Below the pieces are notes generated by a model. That model made no database searches. It saw nothing but the letters and a program-made list of their open reading frames with translations, and was not told where the DNA came from. This document shows positions 2,252 to 23,553 of a DNA stretch of 64,000 nt, piece by piece. Positions within the stretch are counted from its first letter, which is position 1, and the number at the start of each line of letters is the position of its first letter. Source of the stretch: an uncultured Verrucomicrobiae bacterium (GTDB lineage: Bacteria; Verrucomicrobiota; Verrucomicrobiia; Chthoniobacterales; UBA10450); assembly GCA_963772365.1 (NCBI GenBank), contig CAVYXA010000001.1, forward strand, positions 480,001 through 544,000, in the 5' to 3' direction. Position numbers and translations under genes: made by a program.

Positions 2252-4591
2252 TTATGGCACAGAATGACCGATGTTGACTTTTACCTGAGTGACATCGGTG
2301 GAATTGATATCTCCGCTGACGTTGATGTCGTTGCGGAAATTGCTCGAAGAAACCGCGGCGCCCACCTGCCCTTTTGTCTGGGCTACGTCTGTTGAATTGA
2401 CACTTTGATTGGCGCTGGTATCAGCGATCAGCATGACTGCGTTCACCGCGGTATCGGGCAATGTTTGACCAAATGTATCCATGACGTTGCTGGCTGTGAC
2501 TGTGATCTCTTGCTGGTCAGTAACCCCTGTCAGATTCACCGTCATCGTGTTGCCGGAAATAACGGGACTACCCGAGACGGTCCCCGTGCCAGCAGTGACG
2601 CTGGCGTCGCCACTGACGATCGGGTTACTGAAAGTGAACACAAGGGTGTGATTGCCACTGCTGCTGCGGCATTCCACTCCGGTTGATCCGGACAGCGGAA
2701 GATCGACATCGAACACGCCCGCAGCGCCGTGGGTCTTGCGCGAAACCACACTGGCCAGTTGCAATGGGTTGCATGCCAGCGGCGCCATGATTGGCACAGT
2801 AATTGGATCTCCATTCTTGAAGAAACCGATGGTCGCATTGGCCTCGTGTGGTGGTTGATCGGAGTCAAACCGGAAGTTGTAGAGTGTGCCCCAGCGGATT
2901 GCATTGGCATTTTGGTTTTGGGCAAATGTTTCGCAACTCCAGGTTACATCACTCGACGTCTGGGCAGGCGTCCATGGCGTACTGCTAAATCCCGCATTGT
3001 TTTGGGTTCCATCGTTTGTCCAGCCGGGGTGCTGTGGCGGAGCATGAAAGCCGAGATTGCTCACTGCGGCGCAAACCGTCGGCACGCTGAAGGACTGGAT
3101 CGCGCGATCGAGATTCTCGTTGTAAAGGGCATACTCGTAATGCCAGGTGCCAGCGGACGGATTGCTCACCTTGTAGGCAAGCATGCCGATTCCGTCATTA
3201 CCAGGGTCCGGCTCGAACGTATTAAAGTTCGCACCGGTCCAGGCGTTAATACCAGGACGCTGCCGCACCGTCGCGGCTACGGGATTAAACGTGAAGAACG
3301 TAGTTCCCACCGGGGTAAACTGCCGATAAGAAACGTTGTTATACATATTGCATTGGCCGGGATGGGCCTGACACCATGCGAATTCGTGTGGGGTGACGTA
3401 CTGACCTTCGGCAAAGTAGGTTGCGCCCGGATTCTGCGCGGGATCCAGATCGGAGATGGCAACAATCACCCGGTGCGATAAGCCGTTATGTGAGTGACCG
3501 GAATGGTTTGCCGGGCTGGGCGAACCTGGGAATGCACCGGTAAATGGATTGACCCACGCGCGAGAGCCAAGACCGCCCTGGCTGTAATTCAGACTCGCCA
3601 CATACGGATCGGAGCAGCCGGAACCGAGATGAGTTCCGCCCACACCGTTGCATCCGTAGCCGCAGACGTTTTGCGTGAGAGCGGTAAACGCGTGCTTGAG
3701 CCACGATTCACCGATCTGCTCAAAGCGCTCTGTGTTATCCGCCCCGCCGCTCATTCGATAAAGGTTTTGCGGAATCACCGGGTGATCATTGTTTGGCAAT
3801 TGGAACCAATCCAAATTCTCCGTCCCCGCATTACACGAAGTCGTGCCCACCCCCAATCCAACGAAACTGCCGACAGTTCCGTTGCTAGGCTCTTCGACCC
3901 CAGAAATATCCCCGACGATCACATCCGGCCCTGGAACATTACCGACCGCAGGCTGGCGCAAGGCCGGCATTCGTGCTGACTGCACGACGCCGTTCACGAC
4001 GCGATCAACTTCAATCGGATACACAGTTGCTCTAATCGAAATGTTACCCGCAACTGCGCCAGCAACAGAAGCGCGACCCAGCTGTTGAGCAAGCTCATGC
4101 GAAACCACGAGTCGGCCACCGGTAATGCTAAGCAGGTGTTGACCGGCATCGTATTTATAGTCGTGTCCCTCGATATTAAACAGCGTCGAACCATTTCGGC
4201 TATCGCGAATGGCAAGATCGAAATCATCGGATGGACCCATCTTCTGAATCGCCAGATGACTGAATGAGTCGGCCAAGGCTGTGGGAAGTGCCTTGGAATT
4301 TTGCGGCGTCAGGTTCATTGCACTCGGCTCCGGGCCGCGCAATTGATTGTTGGTGACCAGCAGAGTGAAGAATGAATCAGGCGAGACGGTAAAGCCCACG
4401 GCTTTGGTCGAAACGCCGAGCGCCTTTGAATCGAGATGCATTTCCACGGTTCCATTGCCGACGATCATTCGCTCGATGGTGACGGTTCCGTTGCCGGTTT
4501 TCTGGTTTGATTCAGCTTTTGAAGCCTCCGTGCTGTTACAGAAAAGCAGCAGCAGTGGAAGTGTGAAGTAGGTGGACAGTTTCTTTGACAT
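2252..4591 (-). CDS. Secreted Cys/His-rich protein with C-terminal Ig-like and dockerin-like module, paralog 2
   Basis: 779 aa; signal-peptide-like N-terminus; C-terminal VSRKTHG...GVECR...DTSANQSVNSTD...NDINVSGDINSTD duplicated Ca-loop-like motif. Confidence 0.85.
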   Translation of the reverse strand: MSKKLSTYFTLPLLLLFCNSTEASKAESNQKTGNGTVTIERMIVGNGTVEMHLDSKALGVSTKAVGFTVSPDSFFTLLVTNNQLRGPEPSAMNLTPQNSKALPTALADSFSHLAIQKMGPSDDFDLAIRDSRNGSTLFNIEGHDYKYDAGQHLLSITGGRLVVSHELAQQLGRASVAGAVAGNISIRATVYPIEVDRVVNGVVQSARMPALRQPAVGNVPGPDVIVGDISGVEEPSNGTVGSFVGLGVGTTSCNAGTENLDWFQLPNNDHPVIPQNLYRMSGGADNTERFEQIGESWLKHAFTALTQNVCGYGCNGVGGTHLGSGCSDPYVASLNYSQGGLGSRAWVNPFTGAFPGSPSPANHSGHSHNGLSHRVIVAISDLDPAQNPGATYFAEGQYVTPHEFAWCQAHPGQCNMYNNVSYRQFTPVGTTFFTFNPVAATVRQRPGINAWTGANFNTFEPDPGNDGIGMLAYKVSNPSAGTWHYEYALYNENLDRAIQSFSVPTVCAAVSNLGFHAPPQHPGWTNDGTQNNAGFSSTPWTPAQTSSDVTWSCETFAQNQNANAIRWGTLYNFRFDSDQPPHEANATIGFFKNGDPITVPIMAPLACNPLQLASVVSRKTHGAAGVFDVDLPLSGSTGVECRSSSGNHTLVFTFSNPIVSGDASVTAGTGTVSGSPVISGNTMTVNLTGVTDQQEITVTASNVMDTFGQTLPDTAVNAVMLIADTSANQSVNSTDVAQTKGQVGAAVSSSNFRNDINVSGDINSTDVTQVKVNIGHSVP

Positions 4592-20157: not shown

Positions 20158-20583
20158 TCAGTTTTGCCTAAGAAACTTAATCAATTCGTTAAGCGTAGTG
20201 TTCAATTGTGCCTTACCTTTGTCACTCATGTGCCCTGGGGCCATATTGATTATCTTAGTGACCAAAGCTTTGTATTGTTCTTGCCTAGATCGAGGGTAGT
20301 CCAATTCGACAACGGTCGCCTTTGCAATCAGTTCAATCCTGAAATCATCAAAAAGTTCAAACACGTTGCGAGACAAGTTGGCTTCAGGGACGTATTTCGG
20401 GCGATTAGCTTCGAAGTCAGATTTCCAAGCATTTAGAAAGGCGAGCAACTCAACTTTGCGTCGACGTTGATCACGACGACTAGCAAAATAGTTGGCGACA
20501 AAAGCGCCCGAAATTGCTCCACCAATGCTCCCAAAAGCGATAATAACAAACACTTCCTCAATTGTGTCCCAGTTCATCGACAT
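20158..20583 (-). CDS. Hypothetical protein with N-terminal TM helix
   Basis: 141 aa ORF in AT-richer DNA, RBS-like GGAGGT upstream. Confidence 0.7.
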   Translation of the reverse strand: MSMNWDTIEEVFVIIAFGSIGGAISGAFVANYFASRRDQRRRKVELLAFLNAWKSDFEANRPKYVPEANLSRNVFELFDDFRIELIAKATVVELDYPRSRQEQYKALVTKIINMAPGHMSDKGKAQLNTTLNELIKFLRQN

Positions 20584-20798
20584 TTACCTCCTGCTCGCGG
20601 TGTTGGGTTTTATTGGAGGACTCATCGGCGGGCCTTTGCGGGTCGTAGTCTATGTCGGAACGCAATCAGCGGTCGACTTCCTAAAAGCGACGATGGAAAA
20701 GGCTCAACTCCGAATTAGGAGCAGACTAGAAAAACCATACCCAACCAACCCCAACGCCTAGCGATTGGTGCTGGTAGGGTTTGATTATGGAAATTCTA

Positions 20799-21371
20799 TT
20801 ATTCCGATCTAGCTCGATGAAGCCAGCGCGCGGTTCCGTCAGCTTGGTAAGCCAAGGTGAATCGAAAACCTTGCATCTTTTTCGTCCTGATGAATGTCGA
20901 ATAGTAGACGTTTACATTAATATCTCCCAGTCTGTACTGCATCTCGTTTCGGTAAAAAGGCATCCGGACTGTCACTGTGGCTGTTTCCTTTGCGTCCAAA
21001 TTCGGTATTTCCGGTGCCGAATCGTCAAACTGCATTCCCTCGATTCTGCCGCCGTAAATATTTTCAACTTTGCTGACACCGACCATTCGACGTACGTGAT
21101 AAATTGGCAGCCACCCTTCGTTTGTAATCTTGAAGATCGCGGGGAACGGATGTTGAGGATCGAGCGGCCTCTCGATCTCTACGGAAACACTTGATTGAAA
21201 TGAAAAGTAGGTCGTCGCGATTGTCATCAAAGCCAATAGCCAAAAGATTGGGCCGACAGGAGAAAATATCAGACCAAATAATCTTCTTACTTTGTTCCTT
21301 CGGTTTCGCTGCCGCTGTTTTTGCCATTTCAGTCTTCGTAGGTCTCTTGCTCGCTTGCCTCTTTTAGACAT
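20799..21371 (-). CDS. Passenger hypothetical protein (basic N-terminus, one TM helix)
   Basis: 190 aa ORF ending 8 bp inside the left TIR boundary. Confidence 0.7.
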   Translation of the reverse strand: MSKRGKRARDLRRLKWQKQRQRNRRNKVRRLFGLIFSPVGPIFWLLALMTIATTYFSFQSSVSVEIERPLDPQHPFPAIFKITNEGWLPIYHVRRMVGVSKVENIYGGRIEGMQFDDSAPEIPNLDAKETATVTVRMPFYRNEMQYRLGDINVNVYYSTFIRTKKMQGFRFTLAYQADGTARWLHRARSE

Positions 21372-21388
21372 TGACTGTATTAAGCTTT

Positions 21389-21577
21389 GTGCCTAAACGC
21401 GACACAAGCCAAGAAGCCTTGCGGCAAGTCGAGCAGATCACCGGCAGCAAGCCGGTCCGAGGAGAAACCTTGCTCCGGTCGCGGAAGTTAAAGCAACAGC
21501 TTAGAGAAGCTAGAAAGCGCGAAAAAGACCGTCATGTAAAGGCTAGCAGGCCGCCGAAGACAAGACGCTCGGACTAA
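21389..21577 (+). CDS. Small basic hypothetical protein
   Basis: GTG start, MPKRDTSQEALRQVEQITG...; Lys/Arg-rich. Confidence 0.55.
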   Translation: MPKRDTSQEALRQVEQITGSKPVRGETLLRSRKLKQQLREARKREKDRHVKASRPPKTRRSD

Positions 21578-21624
21578 TTCTTTGTCCTTGCATTTGTATT
21601 GCATCTGCTCCAAGGTTCCTGACT

Positions 21625-22041
21625 ATGACCGGGGATGACATTCGGAGCATCGAAGAACGCGAGGCGCTTCTTGATAAAGAAATTACTGAAAGGCAGAAGC
21701 TAAAAGACGCCTATCGCCTTGTTCGAGAGGACTTGGCGCGGAGCCACGGACAAAACGGAAGCGCCAGCCAGGATGATGCGGTTGGGCTATGGCCGGAGCT
21801 ATCTGGGCAGGGCGACAAGGAGTACGGGCGCAATACGAAGCTCGTGCGACTGGCTATCTCCAAAATGACAGACGATTACCACATTCGTGATATTTATGCG
21901 TTTCTGCGCGGTCACGGTTACCAGATCGGAATGAGCGCGATCGGAATAGTTCTCAATCGCTTGAAGAAAACCGGCGAAATCAAAGAGCGTGTGCCGGGAA
22001 GCGGGCGCAGACCGGCTTTGTACAGAAAACGAAGATTATGA
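21625..22041 (+). CDS. Coiled-coil plus winged-HTH-like protein
   Basis: N-terminal heptad-like helix; C-terminal IRDIYAFL...IGIVLNRLKKTGEIK...GRRPALY wHTH-like pattern. Confidence 0.7.
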   Translation: MTGDDIRSIEEREALLDKEITERQKLKDAYRLVREDLARSHGQNGSASQDDAVGLWPELSGQGDKEYGRNTKLVRLAISKMTDDYHIRDIYAFLRGHGYQIGMSAIGIVLNRLKKTGEIKERVPGSGRRPALYRKRRL

Positions 22042-22160
22042 AGTTAGACCGACAGCGCAAGGCGACATCAGCCCGGTCGTAACCTAGCGCAATGATACAA
22101 AAGGCACCGGGCCGCGTGGTTGAATCCTACTAAGACTGCCACGCGGCCCGGAAGGGCAAT

Positions 22161-22230
22161 GGGGATACCGGGTAGGCGGGCACGCCCTATAAGCAACGCC
22201 CGGTGGGTTCAACTCCCACTATCTCCACCA
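22161..22230 (+). ncRNA. tRNA-like RNA (acceptor stem, T arm, CCA; no canonical D or anticodon arms)
   Basis: GGGGATA pairs with TATCTCC; T arm GTGGG-TTCAACT-CCCAC; encoded ACCA end; G3:U70 pair. Confidence 0.75.
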
Positions 22231-22240
22231 CTTTCTTGTA

Positions 22241-22417
22241 TTACGGAATATCACGAGTTGACCGTTCTATCAAGCAATTTCTGGCCCACTCTCTAACCTT
22301 CTGGCCAGCGCGTTTGGCAGCGCGAGTCATTGCGGTGAGTTCATCCTGAGAGAAACGCAGAGAGAAAACGCTTTTCGTCTTTCGCTTTGGCAATTTAGGT
22401 CTTCCCCGTTTTGGCAT
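22241..22417 (-). CDS. Small ribbon-helix-helix-like DNA-binding protein
   Basis: 58 aa, below the ORF-track cutoff: MPKTGRPKLPKRKTKSVFSLRFSQDELTAMTRAAKRAGQKVREWARNCLIERSTRDIP; GRP motif, alternating beta strand, two helices. Confidence 0.75.
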   Translation of the reverse strand: MPKRGRPKLPKRKTKSVFSLRFSQDELTAMTRAAKRAGQKVREWARNCLIERSTRDIP

Positions 22418-22423
22418 AATTAT

Positions 22424-22476
22424 TTTTCGTAATACGAAAATTAGTGTTGACGGTAGTTTAATTTTTGTATTACATT
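22424..22476. promoter_or_regulatory. Operator palindrome and sigma70-like promoter between the RHH gene and transposase
   Basis: TTTTCGTA-A-TACGAAAA (22424-22440); TTGACG (22447) N18 TACATT (22471); second GTATTAC overlaps the -10. Confidence 0.6.
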
Positions 22477-22496
22477 AAATCAAGCTAAAAATTTGT

Positions 22497-23423
22497 ATGA
22501 ATAAACGATTGAGCAAAGAACGGCAGTCTTTAGTTTTGGCGGCGCTCTGTGAAGGAGCACCAATCAACGCAGTTTGCCGGATGTTCCGCGCTGATAAAGC
22601 GGCGGTGCTGCGCATCGTTCGTGAGACCGGCGAAGCATTTATCGACTACATGGACAAAGAATTTCGCGACTTGCCGTGTGTTCGCATCGAAATGGACGAG
22701 CAATGGCAGTATGTTGGCTGTCACGCGGGCCGGATGCCAAAGCCGACGACCGTTTATGGGAAGCGCGACAATACGCGCGGCGACTTTTGGTTGTGGGCCT
22801 GCATCGACGCGGACACGAAGTTGATTTTCTCGCATCGTGTCGGCAAGCGTGATCGCTGGACAGGCCGCGAGTTTGTTGCTGATGTGCGCCAGCGCGTGAA
22901 AGGGCCGGTGCAGATCGCCACAGATAATTTCAAGCAATACCCGTGGCACATCCGCGAGGCTTTCGGTTACGAGGGTTTCAGCTACGGAATGGAAACAAAG
23001 GTATTCGGCGAGCCGGAAATGCTTGACGGCACGCTGGCGCGTCTTGGAAAGAACGAGGGCGTTCGCAAGATGATGACAGCGGAGCGGAAAGCACTAGTAG
23101 GCTCGCCGGACTTAGGCAGCCTCACCACTTCGCACATTGAGCGGGCTTTCTTGACCGTTCGCCAAGAATTGAAGCGATTCCAGCGCAAGGGGCTTGGCTA
23201 CAGCAAAACAGTCGAAATGCACAAGGCGGCGGTCGCAATGTTCCTTGGCGTTTACAATTTCGTCCGTCGTCACGAGACACTGAAAACAACGCCAGCGGTC
23301 GCAGCAGGCGTGGAATTGAAAGCGTGGCGTTTAGAAGACGTGGTTGAAATGAAAGACGCCTACGTGCGCCGGACAGAGGACGCGAAATTTGAAGCAGCAT
23401 TCGCCAAGCTTGAAAAACCATAA
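22497..23423 (+). CDS. IS1-family-like DDE transposase
   Basis: N-terminal HTH; EMDEQW, ATDNF and SHIER catalytic segments; YNFVRRH..L..TPA.AAGV C-terminal motif; stop lies within the right TIR. Confidence 0.92.
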   Translation: MNKRLSKERQSLVLAALCEGAPINAVCRMFRADKAAVLRIVRETGEAFIDYMDKEFRDLPCVRIEMDEQWQYVGCHAGRMPKPTTVYGKRDNTRGDFWLWACIDADTKLIFSHRVGKRDRWTGREFVADVRQRVKGPVQIATDNFKQYPWHIREAFGYEGFSYGMETKVFGEPEMLDGTLARLGKNEGVRKMMTAERKALVGSPDLGSLTTSHIERAFLTVRQELKRFQRKGLGYSKTVEMHKAAVAMFLGVYNFVRRHETLKTTPAVAAGVELKAWRLEDVVEMKDAYVRRTEDAKFEAAFAKLEKP

Positions 23424-23553
23424 CCAAAGCCTACCAACACCTAGCGATTTTATATGACATATATTGTCTGATGTTGTTAAAGCATAGGTTAGATTTTGCG
23501 CGCCTTTACTTCCCGGCTCCCTACGCTGGGGATTCCGTTCGAAGATCGCCCGC

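Follow-up and report, generated by a model that had tools for sequence, protein, structure and literature searches.

Insertion sequences (ISs) are regarded as carriers of proteins and, in a few families, of guide or antisense RNAs. Irregular transfer RNA (tRNA) genes linked to transposable elements, the allo-tRNAs, have been described by Mukai et al. 2017 in Nucleic Acids Research (PMC5389517; review PMC7609411) and, in the passages cited here, were proposed to be non-translational: some combine a G3:U70 pair with a UUA anticodon, G3:U70 forms insert alanine in Escherichia coli, a UAU class was judged not to serve translation and two variants killed E. coli. Transfer-messenger RNAs (tmRNAs) without a tag are also on record, including, according to parts of two reports, the 'TLD only' form (TLD, tRNA-like domain) of mycobacteriophage DS6A and plastid and mitochondrial forms without a coding sequence (CDS) (PMC4131195, PMC11915505), and the relevant part of the tmRNA database paper counts only nine 'standard, no CDS' sequences. 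Here, we describe a 70-nt tRNA-like gene carried by an IS1-family element in a 64,000-nt stretch of bacterial DNA (source contig CAVYXA010000001.1, positions 480,001-544,000; hereafter the window). It is the 'mini' form in a family of irregular, mostly alanine-identity tRNA look-alikes, for which the nearest precedent, as far as the cited passages go, is the irregular tRNAs of Mukai et al. 2017 and not tmRNA domains.

The gene itself, in window coordinates, is laid out as follows.

22161..22230, plus strand: mini tRNA-like gene of 70 nt, with acceptor stem, 2-bp mini D hairpin, long hairpin, T arm and ACCA end

Its 7-bp acceptor stem (GGGGATA/TATCTCC) contains G3:U70 and is followed by a discriminator A (A73) and a CCA end encoded in the DNA, the T arm reads GTGGG-TTCAACT-CCCAC, and exactly 35 nt separate the 5' acceptor strand from the T arm; an earlier interpretation made without database searches (the sequence-only reading) had described these same parts, and all were read again identically on the plus strand. 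The 12 acceptor and T-stem pairs are intact and form a canonical 7/5 acceptor/T branch, a variable arm is lacking and a U occupies position -1. As read from the letters, G1:C72, G2:C71, G3:U70 and A73, the identity set of alanyl-tRNA synthetase (AlaRS), are present, which bears out the proposal of a real mini tRNA-like gene with alanine identity. One of the two inner stems proposed in the sequence-only reading, CGGG/CCCG, was recovered as CGGGC/GCCCG, whereas the other, TAGG/CCTA, is replaced in the family consensus by a mini D hairpin of 2 bp (CC..GG) and, closing the loop CCTATAA, a weak inner stem that is likewise 2 bp long (GC/GC). The mini form thus retains only a tiny hairpin in place of the D arm, and where an anticodon arm and variable loop would stand it has a single long hairpin. 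The tag reading frame and the tmRNA-type D loop are absent, as had been stated, and canonical gene finders return nothing, as had been expected: ARAGORN reports zero tRNA or tmRNA genes in the whole window, and Rfam at gathering scores has no match at 22161-22230. The D arm, 5-bp anticodon stem, NGC anticodon and variable loop of a canonical tRNA-Ala cloverleaf are likewise missing.

Under permissive settings, the sole real Rfam match is RF00023 (tmRNA), at 29.6 bits (E 3.8e-10) against a gathering score of 47, and its alignment covers the two ends of the model only, with the D-loop analogue (GGaUUCGAC), the 308-position core and the GGAC linker all appearing as deletions. The gene has the acceptor features of a tmRNA domain (G3:U70, discriminator A and a CCA end), but, with the D-loop analogue and linker missing and the score under threshold, the label 'tmRNA mimic', given to it in the sequence-only reading, is not supported. 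With a custom covariance model, for which the window element itself is one of the seed sequences, the element scores 69.3 bits and the host tRNA-Ala genes 41, 36 and 30 bits. The alignment to the ends of the tmRNA model, this score and the compensatory changes in relatives together argue that the likeness to tRNA is more than chance.

The element is present as a single copy in the genome and is not a decayed host tRNA or tmRNA, an origin that the sequence-only reading had also considered. The host has three tRNA-Ala genes, with acceptor and T stems that differ from those of the element, and, on another contig, a normal tmRNA gene (160.9 bits, tag ADNEGLALAA) with stems again unlike it. CCA is encoded in none of these host genes, and the resemblance is limited to generic parts; on the RF00023 model, the host tRNA-Ala genes reach 27-31 bits, similar to the element. 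The different stems and the lack of an encoded CCA in the host genes point to a foreign origin. A DNA search of 200 other genomes of the same family gave no convincing match, with three short and weak ones (E 2e-4 to 1e-2). The acceptor/T-arm sequence type is widespread among tRNA-Ala genes from many phyla, with at least 120 loci in a scan of genome contigs, all of 76-77 nt, as the N{30,45} gap in the search pattern admitted ordinary tRNA-Ala genes of that length. A broad viral scan matched phage tRNA-Ala and TLD-only tmRNA-like genes and no close relative, a narrower one gave a single locus, a phage tRNA-Ala(GGC), and blastn against phages and plasmids gave zero matches for the element.

The IS proper spans 20767-23441 (2,675 bp) and encloses the RNA gene. 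Inverted-repeat arms were detected at 20762-20790 and 23418-23446 (29 nt, 83% complementary), and the limits were refined to 24-nt inverted repeats (IRs) by the target-site duplication (TSD), whose 8 bp, TAGCGATT, are identical at both ends. IS1 elements produce 8-9-bp target duplications, so that the terminal repeats and short TSD seen here are of the IS1-family kind. The transposase is of the IS1 DDE type (Pfam PF03400), matching Pfam DDE_Tnp_IS1 at 48.2 bits (cut-off 24.1) and NCBIfam transpos_IS1 at 66.4 bits, under its cut-off of 100. The ISfinder subgroup name for IS1-family elements of the passenger-carrying kind is ISMhu11. The site is found without the IS in a genome of the same genus (G012), where an older right-end remnant is followed by CAGCGATT and then by the same flank. 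With inverted repeats and an 8-bp TSD enclosing 22161-22230, the earlier description of the RNA as IS-borne holds.

In IS1-family elements of the host's bacterial class, tRNA-like genes hold one fixed slot, in the order coiled-coil/winged-helix gene, leader hairpin, tRNA-like gene, divergent ribbon-helix-helix (RHH) gene and transposase. We define the module by a tRNA-like gene that shares the strand of the transposase and lies 58-330 nt before it, with a hairpin and a (winged-)helix gene on its 5' side and a convergent RHH gene on its 3' side, and the window has all of these parts. When metagenomes were scanned by RNA pattern alone, 40 loci were found, five of which (three distinct sequences: L267=L290, L269 and L283=L284) have an IS1-like transposase about 330 nt downstream, 31-35% identical to that of the window, with an RHH gene between; two of the five (L267/L290) also have a homologue of the window's 138-aa cargo protein upstream (28% identical). 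The genome sets that were searched with the transposases are samples, not censuses. Homologues of the window transposase were found in nine of 401 genomes in a phylum sample, with a tRNA-like gene upstream in four of 12 loci (the window, L300, L301 and L309), and homologues of the L283 transposase in 58 of 401 genomes in a class sample. In the latter, 13 of 30 fetched loci (L330, L332, L335, L336, L337, L339, L340, L342, L345, L346, L347, L351 and L353) carry, on the strand of the transposase and 58-330 nt before it, a tRNA-like gene, and only two tRNA matches fall anywhere else in these 30; L330 and L309 denote one place, as do L348 and L302. Terminal repeats (consensus GGYRKTGTCCTAATTTGA) and target duplications were mapped for eight further IS copies, the duplication being an exact 8 bp in four and shorter or imperfect in the remaining four. 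The tRNA-like gene lies inside the IS in seven of these eight copies, and the eighth, L328, has a PIN-domain gene instead. The tRNA-like gene has transposed as part of the IS and, between genomes, is the sole cargo DNA that can still be aligned (77-79% identity). Of the 14 copies found through the transposase, a selection that is independent of the RNA pattern, 10 have G3:U70, on at least seven different acceptor sequences; together with the recurrence in 13 of 30 loci, this provides the conservation among related elements that the sequence-only reading had called for.

The family comprises three body types. The mini body of 67-70 nt is found in the window, L267, L269, L283, L301, L332, L335 and L351. 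The full-size body is a cloverleaf whose D stem covaries (GGTT/AACC or GACT/AGTC) and whose T loop reads TCCGAAT, and a Sec/allo-like body of 90 nt, which combines a long extra arm with an acceptor stem of 8 bp, is found in L336 and L337. CCA is encoded in some copies. A loop motif, N-Y-N-TACA, occurs in 12 of 18 copies and reads as a UUA, CUA or AUA anticodon followed by C37; the window loop, CCTATAA/CTATAAG, is readable as UAU or AUA and resembles the L345 loop TTATACA. A reading of the loop sequence TTTACA as a promoter was dropped, as no -10 hexamer lies at the right spacing.

Pairing in the mini form was assessed on a model of acceptor, mini D hairpin, long hairpin and T arm. Across 27 mini sequences, in most of which the acceptor stem was fixed by the search pattern, 84.5% of cells are paired compared with 71.4% in shuffles (reached in 0 of 500) and 42-55% with slid partners. 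Among the eight IS-borne minis, half of which were picked by the pattern that fixes the acceptor stem and whose alignment was fitted to the model, 89.1% are paired compared with 69.1% in shuffles (0 of 500), and 14 pairs have changed on both sides. The stems are therefore kept by compensatory changes, and the covariation proposed earlier as a check on the element is seen in its relatives. The other 19 of the 27 minis come from non-IS1 contexts (housekeeping loci like those of the candidate phyla radiation (CPR), tRNA clusters, IS1595 transposases and an integrase), and we do not claim them as members of the same functional family as the IS-borne ones. Within this group, 66-70-nt minis in CPR-like contigs (L263, L264, L268, L270, L274, L279, L281, L287, L292, L293 and L295) have the same acceptor stem and long hairpins with 8-nt loops and lie beside housekeeping genes (uvrA, rmuC and others), and those at L260, L280, L282 and L297 abut real tRNA genes.

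The remaining features of the IS and its immediate left flank are listed below; features without a strand are marked accordingly.

20726..20758, plus strand: solo right-end remnant of an older IS copy, resembling the right inverted repeat (IRR) and abutting the target site
20759..20766, no strand: left TSD copy TAGCGATT, 8 bp identical to the right copy
20767..20790, plus strand: left inverted repeat (IRL), starting GGTGCTGG
20799..21371, minus strand: 190-aa cargo open reading frame (ORF), with a basic N-terminus and then a hydrophobic stretch; no family match
21625..22041, plus strand: 138-aa cargo gene, with a long N-terminal helix and a C-terminal winged helix
22107..22151, plus strand: leader hairpin with a 14-bp stem and a 17-nt loop, without a U tract
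22233..22253, plus strand: copy 1 of an operator-like 21-nt repeat, core TGTATTAC, just past the CCA end and overlapping the RHH stop codon
22241..22417, minus strand: 58-aa RHH gene, convergent with the tRNA-like gene and divergent from the transposase
22422-22443 (inverted) and 22459-22482 (direct), no strand: two operator-like repeats flanking the promoter-like site of the transposase
22497..23423, plus strand: 308-aa IS1-family DDE transposase, with its stop codon inside the IRR
23418..23441, plus strand: IRR
23442..23449, no strand: right TSD copy TAGCGATT, 8 bp

In the AF2 model of the 138-aa protein (pLDDT 74.9), a long helix at the N-terminus is joined by a disordered linker to a C-terminal winged helix, for which the best Foldseek matches are DNA-binding domains of Fur/Zur/PadR regulators (E 5e-5). 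Only seven relatives were found among 5.8 billion proteins, the closest (P0003-P0007) being 55-61% identical, and PHROGs and PADLOC gave nothing for the cargo proteins. Besides the L267 protein, homologues occur in L345 (52% identity) and L332 (23.5%), and a tRNA-like gene lies 3' of the family member in four of four contexts (the window, L345, L332 and L267). The window leader hairpin ends 9 nt before the tRNA-like gene and has a z-score of -5.9, and a leader hairpin 0-24 nt 5' of the tRNA-like gene is strong in 12 of 17 loci (z <= -2.4, on simple shuffles). A recurring stem sequence, GGGCCGCG.G, is found in six of these loci, and L347, L342, L336, L337 and L267 have a stem similar to that of the window. 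The RHH protein has weak matches to MobA, MbpA and RelB, all under cut-off, and RHH homologues with a GRPK motif occupy the same position in other module loci. The promoter-like site of the transposase is TTGACG-18-TACATT (22447-22476), and operator-like repeats equivalent to those of the window are found in the same places in L345. The 190-aa ORF has no match in Pfam, NCBIfam, PHROG or PADLOC, and none of the other module loci showed a homologue.

To the left of the IS, the remnant at 20726-20758 repeats the IRR region in direct orientation (78% over 41 nt), the repeat occurring in two places only in the genome, and a left-end search with the motif AATCGCTAGG gave two direct copies only; the IS seems to have landed beside an older end of its own kind. 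The stretch 20158-20766, which includes this remnant, has a low GC content (0.45-0.48) and a 141-aa ORF without a family match. Synteny with the same-genus genome is broken, and simple island borders are unreadable. In the related loci L340, L342, L346, L347, L339, L332, L328, L300 and L302, a conserved ORF of 94-118 aa directly follows the transposase, with the motifs HGC and GHP, then YAW, then PPV.S, and a small membrane-like ORF comes after it; the window IS lacks the conserved ORF, and a read-through fusion of the transposase with the downstream ORF of about 110 aa was considered and dropped because the frames differ. L346 has a second irregular tRNA-like gene in tandem, just upstream (2746-2842 on the minus strand, 97 nt), which ARAGORN calls tRNA-Ile (tat). 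Positions 1-105 of L269, a public metagenome contig, look like adapter or random-primer sequence.

Compared with the allo-tRNAs, the similarity lies in non-canonical tRNA genes that stand beside transposon-related and RHH/antitoxin-like genes, as described in passages of PMC5389517, and in the relatives L336 and L337, which share the 8-bp acceptor stem and long extra arm. The window RNA itself does not have the 12-bp branch divided as 8/4 or 9/3 or the long variable arm by which allo-tRNAs are recognized; it differs in its 7/5 branch, in the lack of a variable arm and in having just 35 nt between acceptor and T arm. The allo-tRNA hosts named in those passages are Acidobacteria, whereas the hosts here belong to a different bacterial class, and a fixed IS1-family module, carriage proven by IRs and TSD, a leader hairpin and a mini form are absent from them. 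Literature searches found no description of a tRNA-like passenger in IS1 elements, nor of the IS1-family module with its ends, leader hairpin or mini form. Similar loci may be depicted in Mukai et al. 2017 (Figure 4A and Supplementary Figure S5). With other IS1-family elements that have passengers, the window IS shares the DDE_Tnp_IS1 domain, IRs starting with GGTG, an 8-bp TSD and extra genes between the ends, and it differs in its single-ORF transposase, divergent RHH gene and structured RNA gene as a passenger.

TLD-only tmRNAs, going by the parts of the reports cited above, resemble the window RNA in their size of about 65-70 nt, alanine-type acceptor stem, T arm, lack of a reading frame and carriage by mobile elements; the tag-less entries looked for in the supplement of PMC11915505 do not occur there. 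In many contigs of uncultured phages in IMG/VR, we observed tag-less tmRNA-like genes of 58-67 nt (L023, L033, L034, L037, L041, L043, L074, L084, L099 and L123). They consist of an acceptor stem, a short hairpin and a T arm with CCA; GGxUUCGAC and GGAC are kept in several, and this phage class may be much larger than recorded. The eukaryotic mascRNA (RF01684) is similarly a small tRNA-like fold placed right after a protective structure that ends a longer transcript, and it would work in the same way if RNase P cuts here; its sequence is unrelated, it is without an aminoacylation identity set, and a permissive Rfam scan of the window reported no match to RF01684.

Taken together, we favour, with moderate confidence, the reading that the window RNA is an RNase P-released, AlaRS-chargeable and probably non-decoding tRNA mimic carried by an IS1-family element. 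That it is a real, selected and IS-borne tRNA-like gene is highly probable, and the mechanism is put forward more tentatively. In this proposal, the tRNA-like gene would be co-transcribed with the upstream 138-aa winged-helix gene, because the 9-nt gap leaves no room for a promoter, and RNase P would release the RNA 9 nt past the leader hairpin. With CCA already present at its 3' end, the RNA would be charged by AlaRS via G3:U70 and A73, and the charged form may then act for the element in a regulatory or conflict role, as a non-decoding tRNA mimic that is neither a tmRNA domain nor an ordinary tRNA.

Several observations weigh against this reading or parts of it. No tRNA-like gene is present at 17 of the 30 related transposase loci, and the closest relative of the transposase, in G034 (73-76% identity), travels with different cargo and no tRNA-like gene; the RNA is thus not needed for transposition, and the gene is optional cargo outside the transposition machinery. 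In that G034 locus (C14:900-4100, L316), the transposase is split in two pieces and an AlbA_2/Schlafen-like ATPase gene occupies the cargo slot. Four of the 14 copies found without pattern bias (L330, L336, L337 and L353) lack G3:U70. The window copy has no TACA motif and an inner stem of just 2 bp, from which it could be decaying, and its minimum free energy of -27.1 kcal/mol is unremarkable (z = -1.47; 15 of 200 shuffles fold equally well). The way in which the eight-sequence alignment was assembled also counts here, as does promoter prediction, which gave none for either the 138-aa gene or the tRNA-like gene. Finally, the non-decoding role would rest on odd loop positions (C37, sometimes C33, and C55 in full-size forms) and on the tests by Mukai et al. 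of other RNAs.

The opposite possibility is that the RNA is a working tRNA that decodes the UAN/AUA box as an alanine-inserting nonsense or missense suppressor and provides low-level recoding for the element, for example read-through of its own stops. ARAGORN calls tRNA-Stop (tta) in L283, L340, L342, L346 and L347 and tRNA-Tyr (ata) in L345, N-U-A anticodons (UUA, CUA, AUA and GUA) fit the loops of 13 of 18 copies, the window loop is readable as AUA or UAU, and, in passages of PMC5389517, G3:U70 UUA allo-tRNAs inserted alanine in E. coli once the anticodon had been changed to CUA. The reading frame of the L267 transposase (3327-4160, plus strand; also L290) is intact except for one in-frame TAG, and a tRNA-like gene with a UUA loop lies next to it; the TAG position is Lys in L283, and the stop is shared by two contigs from different samples. 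This remains the only distinct transposase with an in-frame stop beside a tRNA-like gene, however, and the RHH genes are intact. C37 is found in nearly all TACA loops, C33 in several and C55 in the full-size forms, and we know of almost no decoding tRNAs with C at these positions. The window copy, with its 2-bp inner stem, receives no ARAGORN call, and allo-tRNA-UAU species were inactive in E. coli translation according to passages of PMC5389517, so that we regard decoding as unlikely. An RNase P processing signal had also been suggested in the sequence-only reading. A pure processing signal in the manner of mascRNA/MALAT1, by which RNase P would give the winged-helix mRNA a hairpin-protected 3' end and block convergent transcription into the RHH gene while the released RNA has no role, is distinctly unlikely, although it would account for the strong leader hairpins that lie 0-24 nt before the gene without a U tract, for the 9-nt gap without a predicted promoter and for the 33.3 bits of the L332 mini on the Rfam mascRNA model (gathering score 42.5): an ordinary terminator would suffice for the same job, and G3:U70 in 10 of 14 copies, the loop motif in 12 of 18 and the CCA encoded in some copies would be left unexplained.

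A dead relic, either a decayed tRNA-Ala pseudogene or an attachment-site remnant hitch-hiking in the IS, would fit the weak inner stem, the missing loop motif, the non-significant folding z-score and the commonness of the acceptor/T-arm type in tRNA-Ala genes. Such an origin is very improbable given 12 of 12 intact acceptor and T-stem pairs, a mini architecture with compensatory changes in the eight IS-borne copies, and an encoded CCA and merely generic likeness to the host tRNA-Ala and tmRNA genes. We give the least credence of all, close to none, to a tag-less tmRNA domain like that of DS6A, which would bind SmpB and inhibit or divert host trans-translation. Its best Rfam match is indeed to tmRNA, many TLD-only genes of 58-67 nt occur in IMG/VR contigs, and such tmRNAs exist, a similar molecule having inhibited E. 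coli tmRNA according to parts of PMC4131195 and PMC11915505. That match, however, spans just the acceptor and T arm, for which ordinary tRNA-Ala genes score as well (27-31 bits), the D-loop analogue and GGAC linker are absent here whereas phage TLD-only genes keep both, and a true D arm, together with an anticodon-like arm, is present in the full-size relatives.

Returning to the non-decoding mimic, a further and rather doubtful step would be to see the winged-helix protein and the hairpin with its alanine-type mimic as a two-part cargo system of a new kind, with an aminoacylatable RNA as the active passenger. In one version, the RNA may decoy or inhibit tRNA-targeting nucleases, a decoy role that the sequence-only reading had also raised, and in another it may be an RNA toxin that is checked by its protein partner and so keeps the element stably in the genome; L328, with its PIN-domain gene, and G034, with its AlbA_2/Schlafen-like ATPase, lend the cargo slot a tRNA/nuclease flavour. 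If the favoured reading is true, a conserved, transposed alanine-identity tRNA mimic in IS1-family elements would be a new type of RNA passenger, and the so far loose link between odd tRNAs and transposable elements would gain a defined module whose ends are mapped and which comes with a partner protein, a leader hairpin and mini, full-size and Sec-like natural variants. If the RNA is decoding after all, mobile elements would spread alanine-inserting suppressors; if it is charged yet non-decoding, it would open a way to study how bacterial conflicts make use of aminoacyl-tRNA mimics outside translation.

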